Assembly: GCA_023515795.1 (NCBI GenBank)
Contig: JALGPX010000097.1
Coordinates: forward strand, 1-54,011
Length of the DNA stretch: 54,011 nt
DNA from: Amoeboaphelidium occidentale
Lineage: Eukaryota
Direction of reading: 5' to 3'
Made by a program: the position numbers and the translations under genes. This document shows, piece by piece, positions 3,088 to 54,011 of the stretch; the first letter of the stretch is position 1; each line of letters opens with the position of its first letter. Under the pieces are notes generated by a model, which saw nothing but the letters and a program-made list of their open reading frames with translations, was not told the DNA's origin and searched no databases.

Positions 3088-3227
3088 TACAGAAATAGAA
3101 GCACTATTAGAGAATGTGTAGTTTTGAGAAGTGGATCTTGTGCCTATGTGGTAATTTACTATTAAGTCGCAACTTTCGCTACAGATTTTGAACATCACAA
3201 TTTTTGTTGCAATCAAGCACATCGGAG

Positions 3228-23700: not shown

Positions 23701-24397
23701 ACTATCTAAGCACGCCGCATTAGAGTTTGATTCCAAAATGTTTCGACCTTCAAAAAAGATTGCTTCGGGAGGTGGAGGGGAGCTTTACATCTCTCAGGTT
23801 TTGAGTCCTTTACTAGCGAAAACATCTGGAAATGAGGTTATCCAGAAAATTGTTCATGTTAGGTCAAAGCAAGCAGAAGAAATTTTTCACAACGAGGTTG
23901 CAATCATGGTTATGCTGGGTGTATATCCATATTTTTGTAAGATATATGGCTACACTCTTCAACCTTTGTCGATGATTCTGAAGTTTTATACTGGCGGATC
24001 TCTCTCCGATTTTATAAAGAAAACATCTTTCACAGCTAGAGTTGATGTCAAGATATTAAGGGAGATAGCATCTGGGTTATCTGTAATGCATTCACATTAT
24101 CTTGCGCACTGTGATATGAAACCACAGAATGTTCTCGTGGAGATTATTGATAATGTTCCCTGTATAGCTATTACTGATTTCGGTATCACAAGGATTCTGT
24201 CTGATAAGATATTGGCTTCAAAAAAATTCAATGTGCTGAGTACTAAAGGTCTTAGTGTTCATTACGCGGCTCCTGAAGCATTTACAATTTTTAGGAGTAA
24301 AGTTTACGTGAAAGCAGATTTCAAAAAGTGCGACATTTATTCTTTTTCTTGTATTTTATATGAAATGTTGGGCAGAAGATTAACATGGAATCAATAG
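20763..24397 (+). CDS. WD40-ectodomain receptor-like kinase 1
   Basis: Signal peptide, many GH..WD/WN repeats, TM helix (VLLSVVYVVISILVGCVLLIYV), kinase GGGGELY / HCDMKPQN / DFG / APE. One 35-nt intron at 21340-21374. Confidence 0.9.
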
Positions 24398-24401
24398 ATC
24401 T

Positions 24402-25193
24402 CTAGCATGTTTTTGGCGTCTCCAAACCGCTCATTGTTGATCTAAATATTCCATGAATGCCATTCTCCTTCCAAACTTCACACGCTCTATAATTTTCTTT
24501 AGTTTCAACATTGAAAACTCTCTTGTTATCGCCCGATAATTGCTTGAATGCGTTACACTTGCCATGTCTGAAGCAATCCGAAGTCACAAAGACATCAAAC
24601 AAGACCTTTGATTCTGGTAGAACAAAGACAGACTGCAACCCAGTTTTAAAACCAGCGAAACGTGTATGACCAGACAGAAACTTCATGTATCTCAAGATCG
24701 TTTGTTCATCAATCTTGTAATCTAATTTAATTCTACGAATATCATGATGAAAGTTCCATAGAATCCCCGTGCAATTAAATTTTCTAGCTCTTCTGATTCT
24801 TGCCATGACAAACTTTCTCAATATTGCAGTATCATTGATTTTGATATAATTGGCAGAGATCTTGTCCTTGTAAGGAACACTCAGAGCCGAAGAGTCAAAT
24901 GCAGACTGATCCTTGTCCCATGCGTATATCAAAACAGCATGAAACCTGCAAAAGAGATTCTTGGCTTTAACAGGCCCAGCGATAGTCTCAGCAGACGCAA
25001 ACAGATAGTCAACGTGACGAGCATTTGTGATATTAACATTTTGACTATCAAATGTGATATCACACTTTGCAGTTTTGTTCCAATCCTTGGGAACAACAAC
25101 AAAATCACCATCATATGGAGCACATAGACCAACACCAGCCATAACTACGACAGCGACAAGATATATAACTCTAAAAGCACAAGGTTGCATCAT
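24402..25193 (-). CDS. Secreted GH114-like protein (paralog of the 3-1334 domain)
   Basis: Signal peptide. ARHVDYLF, RARKFNCTGILWN, GFKTGLQS and KRVFNVE align with the gene at 3-1334. Confidence 0.65.
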   Translation of the reverse strand: MMQPCAFRVIYLVAVVVMAGVGLCAPYDGDFVVVPKDWNKTAKCDITFDSQNVNITNARHVDYLFASAETIAGPVKAKNLFCRFHAVLIYAWDKDQSAFDSSALSVPYKDKISANYIKINDTAILRKFVMARIRRARKFNCTGILWNFHHDIRRIKLDYKIDEQTILRYMKFLSGHTRFAGFKTGLQSVFVLPESKVLFDVFVTSDCFRHGKCNAFKQLSGDNKRVFNVETKENYRACEVWKENGIHGIFRSTMSGLETPKTC

Positions 25194-33764: not shown

Positions 33765-36700
33765 ATGAAACAACATGAACTATTCAAAGCCTGTGTAGTA
33801 GTATCATTCAGCTACTTCGTATCTGGTCTTGAGCATGACAAAAGCTTTCTAGTTCAAGATAGTTTTGGAAGCGTGGCCTGCTTAGCTGCTTACAACGATT
33901 CTGTGTATATCGCAAATTCAAACGATGTAGTTCAAAGGGATACTGAAACAGGAGATATACAGAGGACATTCAGAGCTCATCAGAACTCCATTGTATCGTT
34001 TATTATTTCTGAAGACTCTAGGATGATTACATCGGCGTACGATGATTTGATAATTATTTGGAACCTTCATACTGGTTCGATCTTGAAAAGGATTTTTGTC
34101 GGAGCATCCAATACCCAGATCCAGAGCATTTCATATCAGAACGGAAAGATTATAATGGGAGGAGCTGATCGCAAAGTAAGGCAGCTTGATTTGGCCACTG
34201 GTCGAGTATTGAAAACTTTTGGTAAGAGAAATGCCTTGAACGCACACTAAAATTCCTCTAGATCTCAATGAATTTATCATGAAAGTTTTAGCACAAGATG
34301 ATCATGTATTCGTTGCAAAGACAATGGCGCCCTTTGTCATCAAAATGTCGATTTTGGATGGTAGACCTTTGATGTTTTACACAGGCCACTCTGAGTCGTC
34401 GGCTTCTATCCACTTGTATGAGAATATTTTGTTTTCTGGGTCAGTAGATTCATCTATACTGAGTTGGGATGAGAGCAGCGGGGTATTGATTCGATCATAT
34501 CAAGCGCATTTCGGCTTATTGTACGTGGTCGTTGTCTACGACGGACTTCTTTACTCCGCGGGCCTAGACAGAAGAGTGATTCAGTGGAATATTGAAACAG
34601 GCCAAATAATCAAAACATTTTCCTCATCGTCATTTACACAAGCAATAATGTCTTTGGCATATTTACCCCAGACGTTGTTTTCTGGATCTGCTGATGCTAC
34701 AGTAGTGAAATGGAATACTACTACTGGTGATGCTTTGATATCATACAAACGGAACTTTAGGAAACAGATAGTTGTTGGTGCATGGAGAAATTTGGTTTTT
34801 AGCGGCGGAGAAGACGTTACAATCAGGATCTGGGACTCATCTATTGATAGTTTGGATTCTTTCTCAGTGCTCTTTACCGATACAGAGTTTGTCTTTGTCT
34901 TGCACGTTTACAAAGATTTCCTTTTTTCTGGTGGACCAAGCAATTTATTACGCCAGTGGGATCTAGTGGAGTTAGAGTTGACGGCAAAGCTTGAAAGTTA
35001 GTTTTGCGCATAATGGAAATTAAGATTTAGGTCCCACATCAGGCTTCTCTGCCATTGATTCAGATCAGTCGTTTGTTTATGCTGGAGGGCCTCGTGCGGT
35101 TATTTATCGATGGAATATTTCATCTGGAGCTTTGACAAAGTCTTACGTGGGACATGCCGCTGCAATTCAATCAGTGATTATTAATCCTGCATCAATGTAT
35201 TCAGGGTCTATGGATAGTACAATGCGAATCTGGAATATTGAGTCTGGTGAAGTTGTCCGAACTTTCAACAGTAATTTCCGTTTCGATTCAAATAACATTC
35301 TAGGTTTTTACGTTGTTTATGATGTGTTGCTTTCTGAAGATCTTCTCATCGCATGCGCGTTGTCAAGCATGGAGGCGTTTTCATTGACGTCTGGCCAGAA
35401 GACAATCTTTTTGGAAGGTCGGTCCTATCAATCGATTTTATAATTTTTAGAGACTTTTGCATGCACTTGTATTGTGTCAAACGGAAACCGTGCATTCACG
35501 GCTCAAAGCGATGCTTCAATAAGAGTGAGGGATTTGTTTACTTTGAGTATCCTTGAGACGTTCCTAGGGCACTTAGATTCTGTGATTTCCCTCTGCTTTG
35601 ACGACTCATACAATCTGTACTCGACTGGATTCGACGGATCAATTAAGAAATGGAACATGGCCACAAGAAGAGTAGCTTTTTCCTTCGAAGACAGGAATAA
35701 TTCAGTGACAAGTTTATATGCAAACGAAATTAACTTGTTCGTCGGGTTGAGAAAAGGCTCTATCGTTCAGTACAACGTTGATAATAGTTACTTTATGCAA
35801 GCAGCAAATATTCACACTGGTGTGGTTTCTTTACTTCTCGCTGATGACGATTTCATTTATTCCTCTGGGATAGATGGTTTGATCATCCGTCACTCGGCTA
35901 TTGAAATTCAGAATCATACGATAATGCACAATACAGAGGGCAAAAATCTAAGGGGTCTTGCATTTACTAAGTTCCTTATAATTTCGATTGAAGAGGATAC
36001 AAAGATATTGATCTTACCTAAGAACAATACCGGTCTAGTAAGAAAGACAGACGTTCAAATTCCTTTAGTTTGCATTACCGCAAGAGATTCAGAGTTAATT
36101 GCTGGTTCCAGATCAGGAGGTATATATGCTTGGGACATCGAGACTCTGAAATTAAGCTTCGAATTGAAAGGTCATTATTCTCAGGTTAACAGCCTTTTGC
36201 TCGTTGAAAATTGGCTGTTTTCTGCTTCTAGTGACAAAAGTATTATAATGTGGTCATTGCAAGATAAAAATGTGATTTACATTTTCCAAAGAAGATCTGC
36301 CACCGCTTTGGGTCATTTAGGTCGAGTCAATGATGTCACATTTTGTTCAAGTACATTGTTCTCTGCTGGAGCAGACCTATCTGTGCGCCGATGGAACGTT
36401 CAGTCAGGACGTCACGAAGGTGTTTACTTTGGTTTCTCAAAGCCTGTAACAAATGTTCTTTGCTACAATTCCTCACTATTCGCAGGAAGTGAAGATTTTT
36501 CTGTTTTGATGTTCAATCCCAGTCTTCCTCGACAAACAATTTCTTCAATATCAAGCTCAAGGTCTTCAAGATCAGCAAGTACTGAAAGACGTCGAATGGT
36601 CGTGAAGGGAGCGCCTCTTGAAAATTCTAGGGCGATCAACGGTCAAATCCTTCCATATGCCGTTATTTCTGTTATTGTTGTGTTACTGGTCGTAATTTCA

Positions 36701-37516
36701 GTATTCTTATTATACAGAAGAGCGAAAGTAAAGAGCTTTTCGCCATATTCATTAACGACGACTTCCATGACCGCTAGTCAGACTGTTACAGATTTGGAAA
36801 CTGTCGTCAACTCTGTCTTGGGTATCTCAAAACATGCCGCGTATCTCTGGGAAAGTTCCGTTGTTGCTAAAAGTAAGAAACTAGCTACAGGAGGCGGTGG
36901 TGAATTGTTTCTTGCAAAGTTGATGGATTCGAATCTAAGAAGGAGATACGGCGATCAAGTGGTTCAGAAAATTACGTTTGTCAAGAGTAATCTTACGGAA
37001 GATGCTTTTTATCAAGAAGTCGGAATAATGATCATGTTGAATTCTTTTCCCCGCTTCTGTAAAATACTTGGTTACACAGAGAACCCTCTCTCAATGATTT
37101 TGAAGTATTATTCGGATGGTTCACTTCATGAATGGCTTATGAAGAATCGTTACAGCTCCGCAATTTTGTTGAAAATCACGAAAGAAGTGTCTGAAGCATT
37201 ACAGACAATGCATTCATACTATTTGGCACATTGCGATTTAAAGCCTCAGAATGTTTTAGTACAAGTTGAAAAAGGTATTCCTTCTTGCTCTTTGACCGAC
37301 TTTGGTATTGCCCAAATTCTTTCGGATACCATCATTGCGGCGAAGGCATTCAATTTAATCAGCCTAAGAGGTCTTTCAATTCCTTTTGCTGCACCAGAAG
37401 CTTTCAGTCATTTCAGATCAAAAAAATATAGTGGGGCTGATTTCAAGAAATTTGACGTGTACTCTTTGGCATGTGTTATGTACGAAGTAATCAGTAGAAA
37501 AACGCCATGGTCTTGA
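33765..37516 (+). CDS. WD40-ectodomain receptor-like kinase 2
   Basis: Signal peptide, WD40 repeats, TM, kinase HCDLKPQN/DFG/APE ending RKTPWS*. Introns 34222-34261, 34997-35030, 35271-35303 and 35418-35450. Confidence 0.9.
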
Positions 37517-37749
37517 AACTGTTCACTTGCGATTGCAATAAAAGCTATGAATTTACCTAAATAAATCCATCGGAGTTCTTAATACGGTTGGTATCTGACT
37601 AATTATTACCCTAGATAGTCTGATCGAACTTCAAAGTGATCTGTTTCATTCTTGAATGGCAGCGGACTGAAGTCAAACATTTGTTGAACGATCGTTTCTG
37701 GTGGTAGATCAAAGACGTCATAAAGAGGCAGTTTCAACTTATTTCAGCC

Positions 37750-40700
37750 ATGTTCAGCTTACTTATTTGGATATTTGCTACTCTAACATTGAGCACTTCA
37801 CTTCAACATGAAAAGAGTTTCTTGGTGCAGGACGGTGCTTCAGTGATCACTACAATAGCTATTTACCAGAACTCTATACTACTGACGTCTTCCAATGATA
37901 TCATACAGAAGGATATTGGAACAGGTCTGCAACAAAGAGTATTTAGAGCTCATACAAATCAAATTCTGTCGTTTGGGCTGACCAATGATTCCAGAATGAT
38001 AACGGCTGGTTGGGATGACATGATCATCGTTTGGGATTTGAAATCTGGATCAATAATGAAGAGGATATGGTTGGGATCATCTGACACAAATGTCCAGAGT
38101 GTATCATTCTGGAATGAACAGGTTATAACTGGAGGTGATGATGAGAAGATCAGAAGAGTTGATTTAACAACCGGAAGGGTGAGCAGGACCGTGGGTAAGT
38201 TATAAGTACAATTTTGCTGAGTCCCGTAGATTTAGGAGAACAAATCTTTTGTGTTCTTGCATATGGTGATTTTGTGTTTTTGGGCAGAAAGAGCTTTGAT
38301 GCTGAGATTGCGAAAATCCGTCTTCTGAACCTGAACTTCGAAATTGGATTAGATGGGCATTCTAATACTGTCATCTCATTACATCTTGATAACAACATCT
38401 TATTTTCAGGATCAGTTGATACTACAATTATAGCATGGAATCCGGACACAGGACAGCAACTACGAAAATACTTTGGGCACGTTTCGTATGTTTGGGCTTT
38501 AAAAACAGTCGGGGAACAGCTTTATTCTGCTGGAAATGATCAGGTCATATTCAAATGGAATATCAATGATGGCACTTTGATCCAAAAGTTTCCTCGGTAT
38601 CATATCAATAAGATCACGAGTTTGGCCATAAAAGATGATTCAATCTTTAGTGGAGCATTTGATACAGAAATCGTAAGATGGAACTTAACCACATATCAGT
38701 TCATACAAGTGTACAAAACCAGCCGATTAATGCTAAGGTCTGTCGTTGTCTGGAATGATTTTGTTCTAAGTGGAGGTGACGAGTCTGTGGTTGCAATATG
38801 GGATAAGTCAACAGATAGCATAGAGCCATTATCAATTTTAAGTGGCCATCTCAAACCTATTAATACCATGTTTATTTCTGGAGACTGGCTTTTTACAGGA
38901 AGCAGTGATGCCACGGTAAAACAATGGGAGTTGATAGACCTAACACAAATTGGCGAGTTTATCGGTAATTTCCAGCTCTATTTGCTAACATTCAGGACAT
39001 TTCGATACTGTTTCGGCCTTGACAGTTAGCGAAAATATCCTTTACTCCGGAGGAAACGACTTGGAGATAATCTTGTGGAATATCTCATCGAAAGCGAAAA
39101 TTGACGGGTTAAACAGCCACACAGATGAAATAACATGCTTGACAGCAGAAAAAGAGTTACTGTTTTCGACATCGTATGATGAAACTGTAAAAATTTGGAA
39201 TAGGGATACAGGAACTCTAGTTCAAAATTTTCAAGGTGATTTTCGGCGGTAAGAGACTGATTTTTTTAGCCACAAACTTTGTTAAAGCAGTTGTTGTACA
39301 GGAAGATCAAATGGTCATTGGCACTTACGGCGGATTATTCAAAATTCAGATTTCAACGCTTTCAAATATAGCGGAACAACTTGGTAAGATCTTTATAGCA
39401 CATTTAACACATTTAGAGAATTTTGCATGTACTAGTATAGTCTGGAGAAACCCTCGTATTTACAGCGCATACGTTAACGGCGTGATAAAAGTAAGCGATT
39501 CCGAAAATCTGAACGTTTTGGGATTCTTTTATGGCCATCAAAATATTGCTTCTTCTCTGTGCTTTGATACCTTCGGAACATTATTTTCGGCAAGTTTCGA
39601 TGGATCTACCAAGAAGTGGGATTTGGTAACAAGAAAAGTCGCATTTTCATTTGAGAATAGGCGAAACTCTGTCACTTCCCTTGCCGCTTCTGGAAACTTT
39701 CTTTACACGGGATTACGGAATGGCTTAGTCAACAAGTATGTCACAGACAATGCGATGCTGTTAGTATCCAGCAAGTTTCACGAAAAAGATGTTACATCAT
39801 TGATTATTGGGGGAGGTNNNNNNNNNNNNNNNNNNNNNAACTTTCTTTACACGGGATTACGGAATGGCTTAGTCAACAAGTATGACACAGACAATGCGAT
39901 GCTGTTAGTATCCAGCAAGTTTCACGAAAAAGATGTTACATCATTGATTATTGGGGGAGGTCGGCTGTATTCTACAGGTCTTGATGGACTGTTAATCAGT
40001 TCAAATTTTAGTTTTGATCAAGAACCTTCAAGAGTCTTCATTTCTCCCAACGCAACACTGAAGAGTATTATATTTCATTTAAACTCATTGGTCTTCATTG
40101 AGAATGATAGACTGATACTTCAGTATCCATTTAATGGCACCATGTCTACAACTATTTTTGTTGAGTCCAATGTTCCGATTACTTGTTTGGCGGCCGATGA
40201 TGAAAGGATTTATGCAGGATCCATATCTGGCGCCGTACTTTCTTGGAATGCTAATAATTCTTTATTCCAATATGAACTTAAAGGTCATACATCGAAAGTT
40301 AATTACATTCTTCTGAATTCAAATCACCTCTTCTCCGCTTCTGATGACCAGAAAATAATTAAGTGGTCATTAATTGATAGAGTTACGACCTTAGAACTAA
40401 AGCGAAATTCACCTAACACACTCGGACATTTGGGTCCAGTTAACGCATTGTCGTCATGCAAAGAATATTTGTTTTCAGGAGGTTCAGACCTTACTGTGAG
40501 GCGATGGGACGTTGAAACAGGAAAACATATCGATGTCTATTTTGGCTTTTCCAAAGTTGTAACAAGCGTTCTGTGTTTTAACAATTCGGTGTTTGGTGGT
40601 AGCGAAGACTATTCTGTGCTGCAATTCAGACCGGGGTTTAAGAAAGATGAATCGACATTCTCCACCCCAGAATCTACTAAAGCTTTTGATAACAGAAAAA

Positions 40701-41626
40701 GAACAAAAGCTGTCGCAGCACCTGCAAAACAATCTTCTTCAAGAACTGAATCCCTCCCCTTAATCATATCTTTTTCAGGTGTCGCTTTCTTGATATTTCT
40801 TGTAGCGACGATCTTTGTTTATTTGAAGAAGTTTGCTAGCAGAAAATCACCTTTAGAATCCAAAAAGACTGAGACTGACGATTGTGGCTTCACGGTTACA
40901 GATTTACAAACTGTAGTCAACACCGTTTTGGGAATATCTAAACATGCTGCATTCGTTATCCCAAATTCAGCATTAGCCAAGCAAAAGAAGATTGCTACTG
41001 GAGGAGGAGGCGAAGTTTATTTGGCAAGAATAATGGAACCTGACTTGAGGACAAAGCACGGTGATGTTGTGATCCAGAAGTTTGTTTTCATTAAGAACAG
41101 CGCCAGCGAGGATTCATTCTACCTGGAAGTAGGCATTATGATCATGTTATTGGCATATCCTCATTTCTGTCAGATAATCGGCTACACTGAAAATCCTTTA
41201 TCTATGATTTTGAAATTCTATCCCGATGGATCTTTGGAAAGCTGGCTACGTAAAAATTCCTGCAACAAGAATGTCATTGGTAAGGTTTGCAAAGATATTG
41301 CAGGAGCTTTACGTATCATGCATAGCCTTCATTTGGCTCATTGTGATATTAAGCCTCAGAATGTTCTCATTGAAGTTATGAACGGCGTTCCTTCATGCTT
41401 CTTGACCGACTTTGGTATTACGCAAGTTCTTTCTACTGAAATAATTGCAGTCAGATCATTCAATGCGATTAATTTGAAAGGTCTATCGATTCCTTATGCC
41501 TCACCAGAAGCTTTCAGTCATTTTAGGTCAAAAGCTTACACAAGAGTCGATTTCAAGAAGTATGATGTTTTCTCGTTGGCTTGTATTATGTATGAAGTAG
41601 TAACGCACAAAGCACCATGGTCTTGA
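37750..41626 (+). CDS. WD40-ectodomain receptor-like kinase 3
   Basis: Same architecture, ending HKAPWS*. Introns 38195-38229, 38965-38995, 39236-39269 and 39384-39416. N gap at 39818-39838 with a duplicated flank. Confidence 0.9.
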
Positions 41627-41822
41627 AACTGGTTTAGTTCGCGCATAAACCATGAAATAGAGTATCATCAATGATTAGGATCATAATGGCTACCATGAAA
41701 CTTCAGCCTAGATAAATCAGAGACGCTTTGCTTCAAAGGCGCTGTAAAACTCCGTGTGTGCAGTCTAAACTTACACACTTCAAACGCTTGCCGTCAAACA
41801 ACTTTATTTCACACTTATTAAC

Positions 41823-44800
41823 ATGTTGCTCTCGTTGTTGACAATATTAGCCTTTATCCCACTGGCTTCATTACTGCAGCATGAGAAGAGCTTCAAGTTT
41901 GATAACGCTGCCTCTTCTGTATTTGCTCTAGTATTGTACAATCGATCATTGCTGATAACATCCTCGAATGATGTAGCACAGATTGATATTGAAACAGGAA
42001 TCTTACAGAGAAAGTTCATTGCACACACAGCTCGTTTAAGCAGTATCTTGGTTGTCAACGGCTCCAGAATGATCACATCAGGGTCAGATGACATGATCAT
42101 CGTTTGGGACTTGGTAACTGGTTCAGTGTTGAAAAGAATCTGGCTACAATCTTCAAGAACATCTCCTTCAGATTTCTCATTAGATGGCAATAATTTGTTT
42201 GTAAGTGGTACCGATAGTTGGGTGAGGATCGTAAACATGGTCTCTGCGAAAGTTGTGCAGAGCTTCAGTAATTTCGTTCTTTGCCGCTGATCATTATTTT
42301 AGATGTTAATGCAGCTGCAAATGTGATTGTTGCACAAGATAACTACTTTTATGTTGGCAAGGAAGAAGTAAGCTCTCAGCTGGAAAAGTATTTTGTCACC
42401 GGATCGTTGATCTTGGACTATATGGGCCATACCAATTCTGTATTCTCTTTACTTCTCTGGGAGGAGACGCTATTTTCTGGATCGTCTGACAGCAAAATTA
42501 TCTGCTGGGATAAAGCCAATGGCCAAATGATCAGAACTTATCTCGGAAGCACTGATGCAACCTTTGTTTTATCTATATATGATGATTATCTATACTCTGC
42601 CGGTCAAGATCGTTTCATTATGAAGTGGAATATTGAATCGGGAAGTATTGTTGAAACTTTTCCGAAACCTCACACTGGTTTCATCTGGTGTTTTGCCTTC
42701 GAGCCAGGTAGTTTATTCTCTGGTTCTAGTGACACGACTGTCATCAGATGGGACCTTAATACTTCTTCAAGAGTATTTACATACACTGGCCGTAATATAC
42801 AGCTGAGATCCGTTGTATTGTGGAGAAACTTGGTTATAGCAGGTGGTGATAATCTGGCCTTGACAATTCAAGATACGACCCGCAATTCCATCTTCCCAAT
42901 TGAGGTGGCTTCAGGCCATTCAAAAGACGGAATAGTTTGTATGATTTTACTGGATGATGTTCTTTTTTCAGGAGGTGTCGATGCAACTATCAGAAGTCGA
43001 AATTTAATCGATTTCACTGACCTTAACATTTACTATGGTACTTTGGTTAAATATGGGTTCTAACCTTTAAGGCCATTATTACACTGTGACCTCGCTTGTT
43101 TCAGACCTTCTGTACCTGTATTCTGGCTCTGTAGATACTACCGTTATCCGATGGAATATCTCCTCAGGGTTAATCGACAAAGAATACATTGGACATGATG
43201 CAATGATACGAACAATTAAAACTAGAGAGAATTTGCTTTATTCTGGAGCTTCTAATTCTAAAGTGTTTGTGTGGGAAAAAGAAAAAGAAAACACTTTTAC
43301 TATTCTCTATTGTAAGTGTTGACTGAATTTTAACAGTTTAGCTTCCACTGACATCAGCTCAATTTTCATTTATGGCGATGCTCTTCTGATCGGCGCTAGG
43401 GGCATATCCTCCGTGTCTGTTATTACTTACGAGATTTTAGCTTGGCAACAAGGTGGTTTCTTATCTATGTTAATTAACTTTGGGTAGAACCTCATCAATG
43501 TATGGAAATAGTTGCGACTGTAAATCGGATCTATACAGCACACAGTGATGGTCTTATAAGAGGAAGGGATATTGGATCGCTTACTATTATAGAGTTTTTT
43601 CAAGGGCACACTGATACGGTGGTTTCAATAAGCTTAGATAATGCGAACGTTTTATTTTCAACTTCATTCGATGGCTCGGTAAAGAAATGGAATATGGCAA
43701 CTAGAAAAGTTTCATTTTCTTATGAGAATCGAAATGGTTCCGTTACAGCATTGACTGCGTCTAATGGTATCTTGTTCGTAGGTACAAGAGAAGGTATTAT
43801 CAATTCTTTTATCATTTCAACTTCTTACATCATCAAATCTACCAATTTCCATAAAAGTTCTGTGACATCGTTAGCGCAATCTGATGATTCAATTTTCTCT
43901 TCTGGGATGGATGGTAGGATCATTGGGCTCGATAAGGTAGACTATTCGAGCTCAATTGAATTGTATAATGCTGAATCCTTTCCTATCACAACTATGACCT
44001 TGAATGCAATGAATTTGATTTTGGTTAAAGATGAAAACGAGATCATTATTCTTCCCAGATTGAACTTTAGCTTTGATGCCAGAAGTATTGAGTCTAATCT
44101 GCCGCTTGTCAGTATTGTAGCCAATGGAGATATGATGTTTGCTGGCTCAAGAACAGGTTCAATTATTGCATGGGATGTAAAGTTTTTGGAAACTTCATTC
44201 ACCCTTGAAGAACACAACTCTCAAGTTAATTTCCTTTTAATAACAGATTCTTTCCTGTACTCAGCATCAAACGACAAAACCATCATTAAATGGTCTATAG
44301 AACGAAGGCTTCCAACGGTGTCATTCAAGAGGCTCTCTGCTAGTGCACTAGGTCATTTAGGTCCTGTTAATTCCTTATCTTTATGCAAAGGCACTTTGTT
44401 TTCTGCTAGCTCTGATTTGACCACACGCCGATGGAATACACAGACTGGAAGACACGATGATGTATATTTTGGTGCTTTAAAGTCTGTTACAACTGTTGTC
44501 TGTTACAATGGATCTGTTTTTGCTGGCAGTGAGGATTTTTCTGTACTTATGTATGTACCGATTCTACCGGTAAATGCGGATACAAAGATCGCATTGAAAA
44601 CTTCAAGAAACAACCTACGCAGCGTGAGAACTAAGATTGCTATTAGATCAACCTCTTTGAGCTCAGAAACATCACAGACTGCTCTTATTTCCGGTGGAAT
44701 ATTTGGCGCCGTCATACTTGCAGCAGCTGTTATGGCTTATTTCTTCCTTTTATCAAAACGAAAGATGAGAAAAACTGGTAAAAATTCATCAACCGAACAA

Positions 44801-45547
44801 GAATTCTCAGAATTCACTACCGATTTAGATACAGTTGTGAATACAGTGATCGGAATATCTAAACATGCTGCTTACTTAGTTGAGAACTCCAGCATCGGTA
44901 CTGTCAAGAAAATTGCAAGTGGCGGCGGAGGGGAAGTTTATTTAGCTCGTGTTATGAAATCTTTTTCGAAAGAAAAAACCGGAGTTTTGGTTATCCAAAA
45001 GAAAATATTCGTGAAGGATCGCATAACTGAAGAAGCTTTTTATCAAGAAGTTGGAATTATGATAATGTTATCACCATTTCCAAACTTCTGCCGTATTATT
45101 GGTTACACAGAGAACCCTTCTTCAATGATCTTGCAATACTATCATGGTGGTACTTTGCAGAGCTGGATCCAAGGCAACAAGATTGGTCAGGCTGTTATAA
45201 TGAAGATCTCGAAAGAAATTTCATCAGCTTTAAATGTGATGCATTCCCATTATTTGGCTCACTGTGATCTTAAACCTCAGAATGTGCTAATTGAAGTTTT
45301 TGATGGAATTCCCACTTGCTATTTAACCGATTTTGGTATAACGCAAGTTCTGTCAGAAAAGATTTTAGCGTCTCGTGCGTTCAAAGTTATCAATCTTCGG
45401 GGATTATCTGTATGGTATGCTGCTCCAGAGGCTTTCAGATGGTTCAGGACCAAAGTATACAATGGAGTAGACTTTAAGAAGTTTGATGTCTATTCTTTTG
45501 CGTGCATTGTCTTGGAGCTTGTGACCAGAAAAACTCCATGGAGCTGA
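41823..45547 (+). CDS. WD40-ectodomain receptor-like kinase 4
   Basis: Same architecture, ending RKTPWS*. Introns 42268-42302, 43038-43071, 43312-43341 and 43453-43487. Confidence 0.9.
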
Positions 45548-45893
45548 GCAAACCTTTAATGCGGAATTAAATTTTTTGAAACCTTTGAAATAAATTTTTT
45601 AATTGGGAGAGCTTGTGGTTTTTAGCGGTTACTCATACTTCGTCATTTCTTTTGGGAAACTTCACGCGTTTTTACAACACCAGACAGTCATGTGGTAAGA
45701 AATAACTACAATTGATAACTCATCATCTCTAAGAAAGGAGTTGAGTCGTCGTTTGTATCATTTTTTGCACGTGATCCTCTCCCGTAAAACTCGAAAATCA
45801 CGAAAAATGCTACAATTTAGCCCCTTTCTTTTCTCTAAGTTCTTCTGCCTCTTGAAACTCAATTCTGACAAGATTTTTATCAAAGTATTAATC

Positions 45894-46588
45894 ATGCTTC
45901 TAATTTTGCTTTTTGTCGAAGGAAATCCCGCCTGTTCGTCTTCGCTCTCGCAAATCTCTTACCACCAATGCATGAGAGCTCGTGCATCTTTCATGAAGAG
46001 CTTGAAAGAGAACGGTTTCTCCTTTATCAAGCTTAAACAAAGTCCTGAAATGATTGAAAAATGAAACCCATATTGGTTGATGTGGAAAAAACTCCTAATA
46101 TGCCATATTTCTCCTTCTACGCGCCATCTTATCTACAAGATGGCGGCTCAGCTTTCTTTGGGATTTCCGGCCGTTCTGAAACTCCTAATTATGAGCAAGA
46201 AGGCCCTGAAGAGCAACTTGTAGGATCTACAGCATCAGAAGTCCAAAGGAACTTGAGACAACTTTGCAAACAGATTGGCTTGGAGTTTGATGGTGCAAAT
46301 ATGTATGTTAATATGAATAATGCATCACCAGAGTAACCATATGAATTTAAGGCACATATCGACAGAGGATGTTCTCTGGCTTTCCTTTCTTTTTTAGAAG
46401 AGGAGACAGATAATACGGGATTATTTATCATTCAGTCAGGTGTTAAAAGGTACGTAAAACTTCCAGATGATGGTTACTTCATCGCTTTTTCCGGGAACGA
46501 GTTTCCTAAAGATCTTGGTGCTAAGCCTTTAGTACACGGGGTTGATGGTGTAACAAAGCAGCGCACATCTATTCTTTTCAGGCAATAA
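45894..46588 (+). pseudogene. 2-oxoglutarate/Fe(II) dioxygenase (IPNS-like) pseudogene
   Basis: SLKENGFSFIK N-terminal motif. After the TAA at 46334-46336 the same frame reads AHIDRG...GLFI...FSG...VHGV...RTSI, i.e. HxD...H...RxS. Frameshift near 46060. Confidence 0.65.
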
Positions 46589-46757
46589 AAGCTTGATTTT
46601 TCCCTTTTACAGACTCTTACACAAGATTTTATCACAGAGCGTTTTCAAATAAATAGCCATAGAAAATACTTCTGGTGATTTCACTGGTAATACAACTCAC
46701 CCCCTTCTTTGTTCTCCGAATCAAAAAGCGCAAAGATCTTGCCTTCGAAGATAAGGA

Positions 46758-47216
46758 ATGTCGCTTCAGAGCCTACCACCAGAGTTGCTAGTAATGATCG
46801 CGATGGACCTTCAATTCGAGGATCTTGTCAACTTTCAGAGATCGAGCGCGATTGCTTTAGCTGCAACATGTGATGTTTCTTTTTACTGCCATTACTTAAC
46901 AAAAATTTCTACCTATGATACTATAAATATGGCCTACTTTTATAAAGAAAGGATACCGAATTTTAAGGAGGTTTTGGAGCGGCTAATGGAAAACAAATAC
47001 GAATTTTCTGCATTCTTTTACACCAATTCGTACAAGAAGCTGGATGATGATGATGTATGGATCGCGGAGAGTGAGAATGAGACTGAACTTGAACGCATAG
47101 GCCGTGAAATTGGTGACGCTTTTGCATCTTCTGCTTATGATCTTACGTCCTTTTCAGACATAATTAACGATGTATTGCAAGAGGCAGTTAGGGGCGTAAG
47201 GTTGTTTATTGAATAA
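46758..47216 (+). pseudogene. F-box protein truncated by the telomere-seeded element
   Basis: F-box motif SLQSLPPELLVMIAMDL..EDLVNF. The last ~10 codons (VRGVRLFIE*) come from GTTAGGG plus element sequence. Confidence 0.65.
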
Positions 47217-48960
47217 ATATGCTTGTACATAAGTAACAATTCCAACAGGCTGCGAACACAGAAACCAGATGTTTGATCTGATCACTATATCGGGCCTGGA
47301 GTAAAAAAACTTAAATTGTCCGAGTGAGAAACTTCTTGTAACAACCTGAAACATCTCCAGCTTTACCTCAGTAACCTTCCAGCGCGACTACTGTGAAGAC
47401 ACAGTATAGAACCTCGATTGGAGGAGGGAGATAAATATGGAAAAACTCCCCTATCTGTGTGGTGCCATATTGGCGTCCATTGAGGATTAAAGGGTATAGT
47501 GAAAAATCAGTGTATCTCTTGAGATCACCGCATTAAAAACTATGAGTGAGCAGTGTATCACGGTACCTCTTCCGATCAATTGGATCATGGAGGATGAAAG
47601 GAAAGAACAGTAGCGTAACAAACCTCCCCGTGAACTGCTTGTATCTTTGCTGCTTCAGTGAAAAGGTTTCTAGGTAGGAGAGTTGCTCTTACTTCAGAAT
47701 CCCGAACTAATTGAAGTTCTGGCGTGACAAGTCTTAAGGATAGATGTGATGAAACAGACTCATCGGAGTCATAGATATCACAGGCTCGTTGGAACTAAGT
47801 GGTGTGTTGTGTCTTACAGATAGAGAAACCTATTTAATAGCACTTGGAATAAATTGGCTTCAAAGGACTGGTGTTTTACTTCATCGCTCAATAAATTGGT
47901 AATCTCGCGAGTCAGATCACCTTCAGTCGCATAAACTTAAGACAATATCATGATAACTGACTTCTAGGTGTTACTTCACAAGGTGATATTGAGGGACATT
48001 GGCCCTTAGAAGTGAAATCTAGAGTTGTTATGATCATTCCATCCTTTGAGACAGAAAGTCACAGGTTACTGTGATAATTCGAGACATTTGACTTTGAATC
48101 GTTCTACCATTGAGTAGAGACTTCACTTCACCTTAACAATGAATGCTGATGAGGAACAGTGATTAAGTCTAGTGTTTTACTTTTGCTGAGAGTGATTGAA
48201 TCTCAACCTCTACTTGAATAGCCATCACAGGGAGCAGCTCCGAAATTGTATATATAACATAACCAAAAGTCTAACAGTAGCTGAAACTGTGCCCATTAAC
48301 TATGAATATTTAAGCACAGCTAGAATAAATCACAAATAAGTTTGAATCTCAACAGTTTTGACTGTAGTGCTCGGCGCGAATACAGCTCTTTGATTTAAGG
48401 ATTTGAGCGTCGATTCNAAATTGTATATATAACATAACAAAAAGTCTAACAGTAGCTGAAACTGTGCCCATTAACTATGAATATTTAAGCACAGCTAGAA
48501 TAAATCACAAATAAGTTTGAATCTCAACAGTTTTGACTGTAGTGCTCGGCGCGAATACAGCTCTTTGATTTAAGGATTTGAGCGTCGATTCTTTCGGTGC
48601 TGTTGTAATTACACCATTAATTAAATCTATGAAAGTTAAGTGTTTAGTTTAAATACAAGGATTAAAATGACTTTTATCGAGTTATCATGCCATTTTTTGA
48701 GTGTATGGTAGAGTGCAATTCATACTTGTACTCCACATTTTTAAAACTGAATATATAAACAGCGTTATGGAACGCTTTGTTCAAATTATAATATGTGTTG
48801 TTTTTACTTATGACATGGGTAAGTAAAGCTTATACACTTATCAGCACCATCCACATCAACGAGCATCTCCTCGATAGACTATCTGTCACAATTACTTGAT
48901 ACAGAGCAGCATAACCGAGTAAATTCCGCTCAAACAACCTCTCGATCAGAGATAGTCATA
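47187..48960. mobile_element. Longest copy of the telomere-seeded non-coding element (distal boundary approximate)
   Basis: Starts GTTAGGG-GCGTAAGGTTGTTTATTGAATAAA. Aligns with 53615-54011 up to about 47578, and 48845-48960 aligns with 53212-53330. No ORF of 60 aa or more in 47355-48967. Confidence 0.65.
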
Positions 48961-50079
48961 TGATTATATGAGAAGAAAATCTTCGACATGCAGCTTAAGA
49001 TCATCCTTCTTCTCCTTCTGTAAGTTTTCTATCTCGTTCGAAGTACATTATTTCTGTAATTCTTTGCGTGAAAAATCTAAGCCATTTGCTGACTTTTCTA
49101 TATCTCTAGGGAAAGTTATAACAGTTTTATACTATGCTGATACTCAGAGATGTGGAATGAAATTGTGTTCATCTAGCTACTACTGGAGATATTGGATGGT
49201 TAAGTGATCAAACATGCTGGGACAAGATAAGAAGCAACTTGCGATGTCAAGAGATGTAAGAATCTTAGATGCGCTACAAAAGCCTCGTAACAATGATGAC
49301 TTATACTTACAAAGACATGATTTTGACCCCAGTTTCAGCTTGGATTCACTAATCACACATTATCCTGGCTACAATAAGATAATCAACGCCATGTTTCACT
49401 AGGACAGAATCAAAANCAACCTCTCGATCAGAGATAGTCATATGATTATATGAGAAGAAAATCTTTGACATGCAGCTTAAGATCATCCTTCTTCTCCTTC
49501 TGTAAGTTTTCTATATCGTTCGAACCACAATATTTCTGTAATTCTTTGCGTGAAAAATCTAAGCCATTTGCTGACTTTTCTATATCTCTAGGGAAAGTTA
49601 TAACAGTTTTATACTATGCTGATACTCAGAGATGTGGAATGAAATTGTGTTCATCTAGCTACTACTGGAGATATTGGATGGTTAAGTGATCAAACATGCT
49701 GGGACAAGATAAGAAGCAACTTGCGATGTCAAGAGATGTAAGAATCTTAGATGCGCTACAAAAGCCTCGTAACAATGATGACTTATACTTACAAAGACAT
49801 GATTTTGACCCCAGTTTCAGCTTGGATTCACTAATCACACATTATCCTGGCTACAATAAAATATTCAATGCCATGTTTCACTAGGACAGAATCAAAATGG
49901 CTTGAAACCGGTGGGAAAACCATTAAGATTTCGTGAAAAGAAGAAAGATTCTACTTGGATGTAACCTCGTGATGTGGTTGAATCCAATCAAATTGCGATT
50001 CACTCCTTAAAATGAAACCACGCTCAGATTCAAAAAAATATAAAAAGCAGAGAATTCTGGCCTTTTTTTCTTTATTGAA

Positions 50080-52372
50080 ATGAAATCTTCACTTTTACGC
50101 TTCATAGTGGGCTCGATGATGCTTTCTTATGCTATCGCTGTCCCGATGCCTGGTTCAGCAGTATCAACTTTTAGAAGAGGTTCTGCACAAGAAGCATCAA
50201 ATGAAGTACAATCGGTACCAGATGCTTTAGGCCCAAACTTCAATAATCATAAGAAGGTGAAACAAAAATGTGGTGCTGACAAGTCTGAAATTCTTCGAAG
50301 CCAACAGTTGTCTGCTGATTTCATTGAAGTTCCAAGGTTTGAAATTTTTACTACAAAAGATGCCAAAAATTTACGTGCTTGCTTAGCAGCAACAAAGTCT
50401 TGGGTTGAAACGCTGAGTACAAGCAAGCCCATCAAAATAGGACTGCTAATTAAGAACGCAAATGAAACAGGCGACTTCCTGATGGATGAAGGGCTGTTTA
50501 ATGAGTCCGCGAAAGTGCGTTTTAGCCTTGACCTCAAAGCGACAGGCGTGGGAAACTTGGAGAAAATCGTTGAAGCATTGAAAGTAAACCCGGCAATTAA
50601 GTCATTGAACTTGAAGTCTAATTCTATTGAAGATGAAGGTGCAAAAAACTTGGCTGAAGCATTGAAGAAGAATACTGCACTGCAATCATTGGACCTGGCG
50701 GAGAATTCTATTGGCCCTGAAGGTGCAAAAAACTTGGCTGAAGCATTGAAGAAGAATACTGCACTNCGTGCTTGCTTAGCAGCAACAAAGTCTTGGGTTG
50801 AAACGCTGAGAACAAGTCAGCCCATCAAAATAGGACTGCTAATTAAGAACGCAAATGAAACAGGCGACTTCCTGAATGATGAAAAGTTGTTCAGTGAATC
50901 CGACAAAGTGCGCTTTAGCCTCGTCCTTAAGGCAATAGGCACGGGAAACTTGGAGAAAATTGTTGAAGCATTGAAAATTAACACGGCAATTAAATCGGTG
51001 GACTTGAGGTCTAATTATGTCGGAGATGCAGGTGCGAAACACTTGGCTGAAGCATTGGAGAAGAATGCTGGACTTCAATCATTGGACTTAGCGTTAAATT
51101 CTATTGGCCCTGCAGGTGCAGAATACTTGGCTGAAGCATTGAAGAAGAATACTGGACTTCAATCATTGGACTTGAGGTCTAATTATATTGGCCCTGCTGG
51201 TGCAAAGGACCTGGCTGATGCATTGAAAGTGAACTCGGCAATTAAGTCATTGGACTTGAGTTCTAATTCTATTGGCCCAGAAGGTGCAAAACATTTCGCT
51301 GATGCATTGACGAACAACACTGGACTTCAATCATTGGCCTTGAGGTATAATTCTATTGAAGATGAAGGTGCGAGATACTTGGCTGAAGCATTGGAGACGA
51401 ATCCTGGACTTGAATCATTGGACTTGAGTTCTAATTCTATTGGCCCAGAAGGTGCAAAAAACTTCGCTGATGCATTGAAGAACAACACTGGACTTCAATC
51501 GGTGGACTTGTGGTCTAATTATATTGGAGATGAAGGTGCAAAGGACCTGGCTGAAGCATTGGNACTTGGCTGAAGCATTGAAGAAGAATACTGCACTTCA
51601 ATCATTGGACATGTGGTATAATTCTATTGGCCCTGCAGGTGCGAAACACTTGGCTGAAGCATTGAAGAAGAATACTGCACTGCAATCATTGGACCTGTGG
51701 TATAATTCTATTGAAGATGAAGGTGCAAAATATTTGGCTGAAGCATTGGAGACGAATACTGGACTTCAATCATTGGACTTGTGGTCCAATTCTATTCGCG
51801 CAGAAGGTGCAAAACACTTGGCCAAATCATTGAGGACTAATACTGCACTGCAATCATTGAACTTGGCGGAGAATTCTATTGGCCCTGCAGGTGCGAAACA
51901 CTTGGCTGAAGCATTGAAGAAGAATACTGCACTTCAATCGTTGGACCTGGGTTATAATTCTATTGAAGCTGCAGGTGCGAAACACTTGGCTGAAGCATTG
52001 AAGAAGAATACTGCACTTCAATCGTTGGACCTGGGTTATAATTCTATTGAAGCTGCAGGTGCGAAACACTTGGCTGAAGCATTGAAGAAGAATACTGGAC
52101 TTCAATCATTGGCCTTGAGGTATAATTTTATTGAAGATGAAGGCGCAAAACACTTGGCTGAAGTTTTGAAGAAAAATACTGCGCTTCAATCATTGGGCTT
52201 GAGTTATAATTCTATTGGACCTGCAGGTGCGAAACACTTGGCTGAAGCATTGAAGAAGAATACTGGACTTCAATCATTGGACTTGGGTTCTAATTATTTT
52301 AGTGATGAAGGCGCGAATGCTCTTAGAAAATCAATTAAAGGGAACAGAAAAATTTTAATAAGTGGAATTTAA
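50080..52372 (+). CDS. Secreted RNI-like (28-aa) leucine-rich-repeat protein; likely a composite of paralogs across N joins
   Basis: Signal peptide MKSSLLRFIVGSMMLSYAIA. Repeats L.SLDL..N.IG..GA..LAEAL..NT. N joins at 50766 and 51563. Confidence 0.75.
50950..52320 (+). repeat. 84-bp tandem coding repeat (LRR units)
   Basis: Recurrent units of form gcaggtgcgaaacacttggctgaagcattgaagaagaatactg...cttcaatcattggac, with near-identical adjacent units around 51890-52095. Confidence 0.9.
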
Positions 52373-53354
52373 TGCAAAATTTATGTTAACTGAATTCCAC
52401 AAATAAATTTATTTTTGACCAAAATAACCGAGAAAANTGGACTTCAATCATTGGACTTTAGGGTTAGGGCGTAAGGTTGTTTATTGAATAGGTTAGGGGC
52501 GTAAGGTTGTTTATTGAATAAATATGCTTGTACATAAGTAACAATTCCAACAGGCTGCGAACACAGAAACCAGATGTTTGATCGTNGCGAAACACTTGGC
52601 TGAAGCATTGAAGAAGAATACTGGACTTCAATCATTGGACTTGGGTTCTAATTATTTTAGTGATGAAGGCGCGAATGCTCTTAGAAAATCAATTAAAGGG
52701 AACAGAAAAATTTTAATAAGTGGAATTTAATGCAAAATTTATGTTAACTGAATTCCACAAATAAATTTATTTTTGACCAAAATAACCGAGAAAAATGAAT
52801 AACGGCCGAGCCCCGCCAAGAATTATGAGACTATGTTCAGGGCCGTAAGGTTGTTTATTGAATAAATATGCTTGTACATAAGTAACAATTCCAACAGGCT
52901 GCGAACACAGAAACCAGATGTTTGATCGTGGCCACTATATCGGGCCTGGAGTAAAAAACTTAAATTGTCCGAGTTGAGAAACTTCTTGTAACAACCGTTA
53001 AACATCTCCAGCTTCACCTCAGTANGACCAAAATAACCGAGAAAAATGAATAACGGCCGAGCCCCGCCAAGAATTTTGAGACTATGTTCAGGGCCGTAAG
53101 GTTGTTTATTGAATAAATATGCTTGTACATAAGTAACAATTCCAACAGGCTGCGAACACAGAAACCAGATGTTTGATCGTGGCCACTATATCGGGCCTGG
53201 AGTAAAAAANCAAAACTATCCACATAAACAAAACTCTCCTCGATAGAAGATCTGCAACAATTGCTTGATACAGAGCAGCATAACCGAGTAAATTCTGTTC
53301 AATCGACCTCTCGATCAGAGACAGTCATATTTCTTCCGAGTAAACACCTTTTCA

Positions 53355-53381
53355 TTAGGGTGTTAGGGTCTTGGTTTAGGG
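53355..53381 (+). repeat. Interstitial telomeric repeats (variant TTAGGG)
   Basis: TTAGGG-TG-TTAGGG-TCTTGGT-TTAGGG. Confidence 0.8.
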
Positions 53382-53601
53382 GCGTAAGGTTGTTTATTGA
53401 ATAAATATGCTTGTACATAAGTAACAATTCCAACAGGCTGCGAACACAGAAACCAGATGTTTGATCTGATCACTATATCGGGCCTGGAGTAAAAAAACTT
53501 AAATTGTCCGAGTTGAGTAACTTCTTGTAACAACCGTTAAACATCTCCAGCTTCACCTCAGTAACCGGTCCAGCGCGACTACTGTGAAGACACAGATTGG
53601 A

Positions 53602-53620
53602 TTAGGGTTTAGGGTTAGGG
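53602..53620 (+). repeat. Interstitial telomeric repeats
   Basis: TTAGGG TTTAGGG TTAGGG between two element copies. Confidence 0.85.
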
Positions 53621-54011
53621 GCGTAAGGTTGTTTATTGAATAAATATGCTTGTACATAAGTAACAATTCCAACAGGCTGCGAACACAGAAACCAGATGTT
53701 TGATCATGGCCACTATATCGGGCCTGGAGTAAAAAACTTAAATTGTCCGAGTTGAGAAACTTCTTGTAACAACCGTTAAACATCTCCAGCTTCACCTCAG
53801 TAACCGTCCAGCGCGACTACTGTGAAGACACAGATTGGAACCTCGTTGGAGGAGAGTGTAAAATATCGAAAAGCACTCCCAACTGTGTGGTGCACTAACG
53901 CGTCCTTTTAATAGGATAAGGGTGATAGAAAAAAAACAGATCTTACTCTTTGAGTAGCTGAAATAAATAACTATCGAATAGTAGTATGATACGGTACCTC
54001 TTTTGTGATCA

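Follow-up and report, generated by a model that had tools for sequence, protein, structure and literature searches.

The window, i.e., the whole 54,011-nt stretch of DNA analyzed here, is an intron-poor eukaryotic scaffold end (~40% GC) of Amoeboaphelidium occidentale. This organism is an aphelid, a cultured parasite of algae, and aphelids are the sister group of fungi. The species is filed at NCBI under Aphelidiomycota, and an RFC tree (28 rows, with the aphelid row absent) placed the host as sister to the sampled fungi with weak support. The scaffold carries genes for two GH114 glycoside hydrolases (165-1334 and 24402-25193), a GT61 glycosyltransferase (18052-19563), and an M13 peptidase (15103-16053). 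Furthermore, genes with a WD40-transmembrane-protein kinase arrangement are located on the plus strand at 21398-24397 and 33765-45547, one of them single and three in tandem at ~4-kb spacing; the first has only 2 relatives at E<=1e-40. One or more ribonuclease-inhibitor-type LRR genes with 28-aa repeats (50080-52372, plus strand), comprising pieces joined across Ns, are found inside the telomeric element array described below. Their hydrophobic N-terminus resembles a signal peptide, suggestive of a candidate secreted protein for the algal host, and an LRR fragment at 52438-52457 is itself cut by TTAGGG and the element. Eight single Ns are present in the window (48417, 49416, 50766, 51563, 52437, 52586, 53025, and 53210). 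They are probably assembly or scaffolding joins because near-identical sequence (175, 393, 482 bp, and others) is duplicated on their two sides; therefore, neither the tandem duplications nor the arrangement of the pieces beyond 48417 is reliable. Copy A of the element is continuous with ordinary genes in a stretch free of Ns from 39839 to 48416; copy B is located in the last assembly piece (53211-54011), and the two copies are on different pieces joined by single Ns.

The covarying stems that are the subject of this report belong to a non-coding element that is present in many copies in A. occidentale and adjoins telomere-type seeds. The element starts at 47187 in copy A and at 53614 in copy B, and the structured domain is located 210-390 nt inside it. 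All seven copies in the window begin at the same base (...AGGG(G/C)CGTAAGG) behind a (TT)AGGG seed on five different flanks (Table 1), the copies at 52839 and 53090 having a common flank; contigs from two public sequencing runs (X2 and X4) show this boundary on further flanks, the last bases of which are TTAG, TTAGG, or TA. The distal stops vary: the element ends after ~21 nt in the copy at 52464, after ~227 nt with a TTAGGG cap at 53375-53601, and after ~380 nt with a cap in a contig of run X5, in which the element stops and is followed by GGGTTAGGGTTA, as in the window copy 53375-53601. Copies are arranged in head-to-tail arrays, i.e., copy 53375-53601 is followed by the repeats at 53602-53621 and then by copy B, and copy 52464-52490 by one telomere repeat and at once by the next copy. 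Copy B and the copy at 53375 stand in telomere tracts, and the copies at 47187 and 52839 stand on non-telomeric flanks with seeds of 4-8 nt.

Copy A cuts an F-box-like host ORF, of which the last ~9 codons and the stop codon are element sequence. The paralog P0124 matches this ORF up to DVLQE and then continues with a different 22-aa end; therefore, the element replaced the end of the host gene. The public gene model P0123 (46058-48222, plus strand) apparently combines an upstream ORF with a portion of the F-box ORF and with a few codons past the element, and its splicing out of ~970 nt of the element as an intron is probably a prediction artefact. The first element-specific bases, GTAAGG (47196-47201, plus strand), are a good match to a 5′ splice site, which, judging from the motif, might allow the element to be spliced out of host read-through transcripts. 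A second stretch, present in two copies (48846-48961 and 53215-53330) that are 86% identical with 16 differences, is considered non-coding because of the absence of a codon-position bias, and it folds better on the minus strand (consensus -24.9 vs. -10.8 kcal/mol). This stretch may belong to the element as a more distal portion since its copy at 53215 is followed by a telomere-like cap and then by an element copy.

Table 1. Positions of the element copies, the interrupted host ORF, and the RNA helices within the window
Feature	Position	Strand	Basis or remark
F-box-like host ORF, 152 aa, cut by the element	46758..47216	+	Pfam F-box-like, E 0.009, below cut-off
Telomere-type seed GTTAGGGG	47187..47194	+	Proximal junction of copy A
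Non-coding copy A (subfamily A), extent covered by X1 contigs	47187..48240	- (inferred)	X1 contig cover; six frames without a Pfam family at E<0.05
7-bp helix closing the terminal domain, predicted	47200..47346 (47200-47206 with 47340-47346)	-	Pair probability
Long terminal-domain hairpin, 21 pairs	47246..47298	-	4 G-U on minus in copy A
Alternative hairpin CTGTG-AAGA-CACAG	47391..47404		Competes for the 5′ arm of the outer junction helix
Three-way junction, copy A	47399..47460		10+4+5 bp
Small hairpin TCC/GGA, copy A	47476..47486		Homologous to covarying 53903-53916
ATAG/CTAT stem around ATCT/AGAT hairpin (47514-47525), copy A	47496..47543		Folding
Very short copy, ~21 nt of element, behind TTAGGG	52464..52490	-	Sequence comparison
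Copy ending at an assembly N	52492..52585	-	Sequence comparison
Copy behind a bare AGGG seed, reaching an assembly N	52839..53024	-	Sequence comparison
Copy ending at an assembly N, flank as 52839, probably an assembly duplicate	53090..53209	-	Sequence comparison
Copy cut inside the 5′ arm of the junction, imperfect TTAGGG cap (53602-53621)	53375..53601	-	Sequence comparison
Element copy B, subfamily B, reaching the window end	53614..54011	-	Sequence comparison
Three-way junction, copy B	53828..53888		Folding and comparison with copy A
Hairpin TCCT/AGGA, copy B	53903..53916		Variants in runs X4, X5, X1, X3
GATAG/CTATC stem around CAG/CTG and TACTC/GAGTA, copy B	53924..53975		Folding

The initial annotation had named a series of stems in copies A and B and claimed that they are kept while their sequence changes; all of them are found at the positions given, and the claim is borne out for the three-way junction. 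Across 61 ungapped columns, the junctions of copies A and B differ by 13 substitutions, of which the 8 located in stems make up 4 complete compensatory pairs (AU/UA, AU/GC, GC/AU, and AU/UA). All 19 pairs are kept in both copies, with none broken or changed on one side only, and slid registers of the junction yield 0 compensatory pairs. When 13 substitutions were placed at random (200,000 trials), at least 4 compensatory pairs arose at a frequency of 6e-5 and no broken pair at 1.8e-4, the random-placement value being somewhat flattering because the structure was derived from copies A and B themselves. A shuffle control on the two-row alignment gave 28/500, below which no value is reachable by construction. 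The helices ACACAG/CTGTGT and CCTC/GAGG, which had been cited in the same claim, are present in both copies and never vary; hence, they are conserved rather than covarying. Folded alone, the junction is better than shuffled controls in both copies and on both strands, with z values between -2.91 and -3.84 (copy A, -3.35 on plus and -3.21 on minus; copy B, -3.84 on plus and -2.91 on minus). In longer contexts, the junction of copy B is predicted with a probability of 0.78-0.98 on the minus and 0.54-0.92 on the plus strand, and that of copy A with 0.00-0.85 on the plus strand and 0.01-0.03 on the minus strand in every context tried, the upstream CTGTG-AAGA-CACAG hairpin winning in silico in this copy (predicted probability of the hairpin in copy A, 0.14-1.0 on plus and 0.97-0.98 on minus; in copy B, 0.00-0.27). 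The junction is flanked by the invariant blocks GAAGACACAG, CTGTGTGGTGC, and ACGGTAC. The loop of the 4-bp junction helix varies at 3 of 4 places, and also in length, among the public-run contigs.

Parts of the element occur in 24 public runs, all as contigs and none recorded as RNA, of which five (X1-X5) were compared, X1-X4 with copy A and X1, X3, X4, and X5 with copy B; run X1 may be the source of the assembly itself and is not independent. The variants listed for the copy B junction in four runs lie at 8 places, which correspond to 0 of 38 paired and 8 of 23 unpaired positions (Fisher p 1.7e-4, serving only as a guide since the copies are related), with 53873, a helix-end U-G in copy B, scored as unpaired among the 8. 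The listed variants omit differences near contig ends, and a contig of a third subfamily in X1 has 16 differences from copy B, of which 2 are listed, so stem-breaking changes there are possible. The listing for copy A covers 40 of 183 rows, and the 26 of its 40 variant places that are located from 47464 on do not avoid predicted pairs (0.51 vs. 0.54-0.58). Among the A-type rows listed, T>C at 47525 gives A-C on the plus and G-U on the minus strand, G>A at 47475 converts a plus-strand U-G into U-A, and G>T at 47464 breaks a predicted pair unless its partner changes in a row outside this listing.

The next hairpin distal to the junction also covaries. At 53903-53916, two neighboring pairs are double-compensatory in X4 and X5 (C-G to T-A and T-A to C-G), and a third form, TCCA/TGGA, occurs in the third subfamily (X1 and X3); GATAG/CTATC, CAG/CTG, and TACTC/GAGTA have no breaking variant among those listed in four runs. 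The hairpin proposed as ATCTC/GAGAT at 47514-47525 is present, but five pairs would need a 2-nt loop, and it comprises 4 bp and a CUUG loop instead. Against shuffled controls, the distal half alone (47461-47575 and 53889-54004) does not share the stability of the junction (z -1.14, -1.13, -0.48, and +0.50), and therefore its support is covariation only. A long-range ACUACU/AGUAGU helix in the minus-strand consensus was dropped at a predicted probability of 0.00-0.29. The proposal that selection acts on base pairing is thus supported, in view of the compensatory pairs in separate helices and separate subfamilies and the location of the listed variants only in loops.

At least three subfamilies share a near-identical terminal region of ~215 nt and have only 65-75% identity in the structured domain; between copies A and B, identity is 90-100% over the first 237 nt and 65-75% over the structured domain. 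Contigs of run X1 cover all 30 bins of copy A with a depth that falls away from 47187, the summed depth decreasing from ~40,000 at 47170-47214 to ~1,500-4,000 beyond 47700. Single-contig depths of 9,500 (B type), 1,810 (A type), and 104 (third type) vs. 114 for a contig identical to the flank suggest roughly 80, 16, and 1 copies, respectively, depth being a poor copy count. The third subfamily is found on single-copy-depth contigs in both X1 and X3, one of those in X1 having a length of 2.8 kb.

Because the G-rich telomere strand is the plus strand, a template RNA must be minus, and the RNA of the element is likely the minus strand. On this strand, the predicted 7-bp closing helix of the terminal domain leaves a free tail ending in CCCCUAAC; in copy A, its predicted pair probability is 0.91-0.97 on minus and 0.90-0.96 on plus, and the helix is invariant and therefore provides no covariation. 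The long hairpin at 47246-47298 has z values of -3.40 on minus vs. -2.17 on plus in copy A and -2.18 vs. -1.66 in copy B, and its two A/B differences (47281 and 47282) preserve pairing on the minus strand alone, as wobbles. The covarying domain itself is ambiguous in the folding models. The junction is free of G-U pairs; its unpaired positions are A-rich on plus (46-54% A), as is usual in structured RNAs, several helix-end U-G pairs favor plus, and the consensus energy is -34.6 on plus vs. -29.4 on minus, whereas the distal stems of copy A (47496-47543) favor minus (predicted probability 0.70-0.95 vs. 0.00-0.05). The earlier observation that G-U evidence for the strand is mixed inside the domain is thus upheld. 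The sequence TTTATTGAATAAA (47205-47217) holds an AATAAA signal on both strands ~20 nt from the presumed RNA 3′ end and is invariant in all copies long enough to contain it.

Pfam searches of 12 frames of 47187-49415 yielded no family at E<0.05, including no reverse transcriptase and no restriction-like endonuclease. A 147-aa near-open plus-strand frame had 0 relatives among 1.84 billion proteins, and a 64-aa plus-strand frame (49208-49399) had no usable match in the Atlas; an alternative genetic code was rejected, as each of the six frames of 47187-48242 contains every one of the three stop codons. Rfam searches gave 1 match at E<=5 in 46500-54011 and 3 at E<=10 in 47180-48240, in every case with a score well short of the gathering threshold, and the classes that had been suggested for comparison, i.e., ribozymes, telomerase RNA, and group I introns, had no match at E<10. 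The hallmark of a group I intron is the P7 helix with its G-C guanosine-binding pair; GACUA and UAGUC, which we take to be a P7 motif, are not paired on one strand in the domain, and this class was also rejected. A scan for exact hammerhead cores on both strands of 47187-48240 and 53614-54011 found 2 exact half-cores, neither with stem II and GAAA, a result on which relaxed descriptors (supplements of PMC4209133 and PMC8557442) may bear. A lone CTGATGA half-core without stem II is located at 48146-48152 (plus strand), in a block (48069-48183) common to contigs of X1 and X3 that diverge beyond it. In the JGI metagenomes, a 30-nt terminal pattern had 0 matches and a junction pattern had 4, none with the inner stems or flank similarity; model R1 on 8 loci recovered no metagenome junction match, and its one viral-locus match elsewhere (E 0.03) was taken as chance. 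Viral contigs gave 105 pattern matches, rejected as chance with a best blastn match of 22-25 nt at E>=0.03, and plasmids gave no match to the element. Over the window, the strong matches of model R1 are only its two training copies, with four more at E>=0.86. A literature search of openly accessible papers found no report on telomeres or mobile elements of A. occidentale.

The element is most likely an undescribed telomere-attaching retroelement of an aphelid, and we consider it probable that the covarying stems are a cis-acting RNA domain in its 3′ region. The initial designation as a functional ncRNA domain needs to be narrowed to that of a likely cis-acting domain of a mobile telomeric element; no sign of a stand-alone gene, ribozyme, or telomerase RNA domain was found. 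By analogy with Athena/Coprina and MoTeR2, the fixed start behind a telomere seed, the varied distal stops, and the TTAGGG caps can be read as the footprint of telomere-primed retroelements. Briefly, the minus-strand RNA would end in ...UUACGCCCCUAAC, a tail that the terminal helix would keep unpaired and thereby able to anneal to the G-rich end of a chromosome or, through a few matching bases, to a break. The 3′ end of the DNA would then be extended on this RNA by a reverse transcriptase that is either provided in trans or encoded more distally; a Penelope-like enzyme without endonuclease is the most likely candidate. Truncated copies would arise when the enzyme falls off early or when copies erode later, and telomerase would cap them, so that arrays would accumulate; selection on the RNA during each copying round would keep the helices. 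The most likely role of the junction and the hairpins, which are 210-390 nt away from the end of the RNA, is that of a protein-binding site, used either to load the enzyme or to protect the RNA. As loops vary and the helix lengths and the bases of the junction are preserved, the domain most likely binds the copying protein, which would read helix geometry and not loop sequence.

Alternatively, host telomerase itself might copy the element in full at chromosome ends and at breaks, and the element would then be a protein-free telomere parasite or a telomerase RNA paralog family; the exposed CCCUAA tail with the terminal helix would take the place of a hammerhead, and the junction would recruit TERT. 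We regard this as unlikely; if true, it would represent a present-day link, at the base of fungi, between telomeres built by retroelements and telomeres built by telomerase, and it would provide the first telomerase-related RNA of an aphelid. A related and improbable account regards the element as a reverse-complement copy of the 5′ portion of telomerase RNA, or of the members of a small paralog family, generated by template-boundary read-through, with the stems being telomerase RNA structure. It is consistent with the minus-strand order helix-UUACG-CCCCUAAC, in which the predicted helix ends 5 nt upstream of a possible template, with the copy at 52464-52490 (a 21-nt run, one telomere repeat, and a restart), with the single-copy depth of the third subfamily in X1 and X3, and with the literature search, which found no telomerase RNA from an aphelid. 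Against this account, CR4/5 of telomerase RNA is located 3′ of the template, whereas the junction is 5′ of the would-be template, and the loop of the 4-bp helix, unlike P6.1, varies freely in length and sequence. Furthermore, at least three coexisting subfamilies with compensatory differences would require several functional templates, copies reach 1 kb or more, and Rfam gave no telomerase match; the sequence 3′ of the possible template differs between copies. The position of the helix fits fungal template boundaries as described in the available text of PMC3603654, and vertebrate type-B TERC-ITS loci provide a precedent, but these are rare (41 loci in 30 genomes in the available parts of PMC8537989), whereas copies of the element are abundant.

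Spread of a subtelomeric repeat through recombination or break-induced replication, as in yeast Y′ or in the expansion of MoTeR arrays, with the plus-strand structured RNA as a telomere-directed transcript, is distinctly unlikely. The A-rich loops, several U-G pairs, and the consensus energy favor the plus strand, the mosaic identity (terminal region 95%, domain 65-75%) shows recombination between subfamilies, and D-loop expansion of telomeric arrays is documented (available text of 10.1101/845669); however, one exact base joined to unrelated flanks by 3-8 matching bases inside coding sequence is hard to obtain homologously, and the terminal hairpin is supported on minus only. There is very little probability that the domain acts in place of the hammerhead as a self-cleaving ribozyme from a class not yet described; such a role would be compatible with a retroelement. 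Ribozymes close to the 3′ end are a feature of telomeric Penelope-like elements (PMC4209133, in part), invariant blocks flank the junction, and the alternative hairpin could serve as a switch, but cleavage 210-390 nt from the presumed 3′ end would remove the priming tail, and neither an Rfam ribozyme match at E<10 nor a hammerhead core with stem II was found. Neutral subtelomeric DNA, in which DNA-level template-switch repair keeps short inverted repeats matched, is hardly credible: both strands also fold as DNA (z -2.3 to -3.4) and the distal half is not thermodynamically special, whereas matched changes occur in three separate helices of 4-5 bp, in different subfamilies, and in a nested three-way geometry with free loops, and the diverged pair 48846-48961 and 53215-53330 has only 0 (plus) or 1 (minus) compensatory pair.

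As a probable telomere-attaching retroelement, the element would belong with the closest relatives of telomerase; to our knowledge, the RNA structure needed by such retroelements has been little described apart from hammerheads. Through its natural covariation, the element makes a compact domain other than a hammerhead accessible to study in a lineage that is sister to fungi. It visibly heals breaks inside host genes and adjoins secreted-type LRR genes, and therefore it may drive turnover of subtelomeric gene families. The non-LTR elements R2 and SART1 have covarying 3′ UTR stems near the RNA 3′ end that are read by the element protein, and they nick the target with their own endonuclease; unlike in R2 and SART1, no poly(A) tail or ORF is seen here. 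In type-B TERC-ITS, a telomere repeat continues into a complement of the RNA segment 5′ of the template (available parts of PMC8537989). Similarly, the telomere repeat of the element adjoins a would-be complement of RNA 5′ of a template, but the element is abundant, reaches 1 kb or more, and has several subfamilies, unlike the rare single loci described in the same text.

MoTeR2 is non-autonomous, shares 77 bp of its 3′ end with MoTeR1, and leaves truncated relics (10.1101/845669 and PMC8381367, in part). As reported for MoTeR1 and MoTeR2 of Pyricularia oryzae in the available text of these sources, the 5′ ends of the element face the tip, with half a unit to many TTAGGG units between copies, and, like the relics, the copies are internalised, 5′-truncated, and without target duplications. 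Unlike MoTeR, the element showed no reverse transcriptase or restriction-like endonuclease in 47187-49415 and attaches inside genes at seeds of 3-8 nt; no conserved RNA fold is mentioned for MoTeR in the available parts of either source (0 occurrences of “secondary structure” in PMC8381367). More generally, Terminons, Coprina, and MoTeR2 form 5′-truncated, telomere-capped, head-to-tail copies with 3′ ends facing the chromosome interior, and their non-autonomous members have shared 3′ termini (available parts of PMC6431247, PMC13159263, 10.1101/845669, and PMC8381367).

Terminons and Athena/Coprina attach to G-rich overhangs through a reverse-complement telomere stretch beside a hammerhead, according to the accessible text of PMC6431247, PMC8557442, PMC13159263, and PMC4209133. 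The element resembles Coprina, Athena, and Terminons in its telomere location, capped 5′-truncated copies, head-to-tail chains, and 3′-terminal fold by a telomere stretch (PMC6431247, PMC8557442, and PMC13159263, in part). Features of EN-deficient Penelope-like elements were found in the 3′ end on telomere repeats with fixed polarity (7 of 7 window copies) and in the capped 5′-truncated head-to-tail copies (53375-53601, the X5 contig, and the depth gradient). Naiad and most Chlamys elements are without hammerheads in the available parts of PMC8557442, and therefore the absence of a hammerhead is compatible with a Penelope-like enzyme. As no hammerhead was found in the exact-core scan and no reverse transcriptase was seen in 47187-49415, the element is filed in neither the Penelope-like nor the MoTeR family. 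Unlike Coprina and Athena, it showed no hammerhead in the exact-core scan, no reverse transcriptase ORF in 47187-49415, and only about one evident telomere-complementary unit, and it carries instead a covarying three-way junction and hairpins 210-390 nt from its end.
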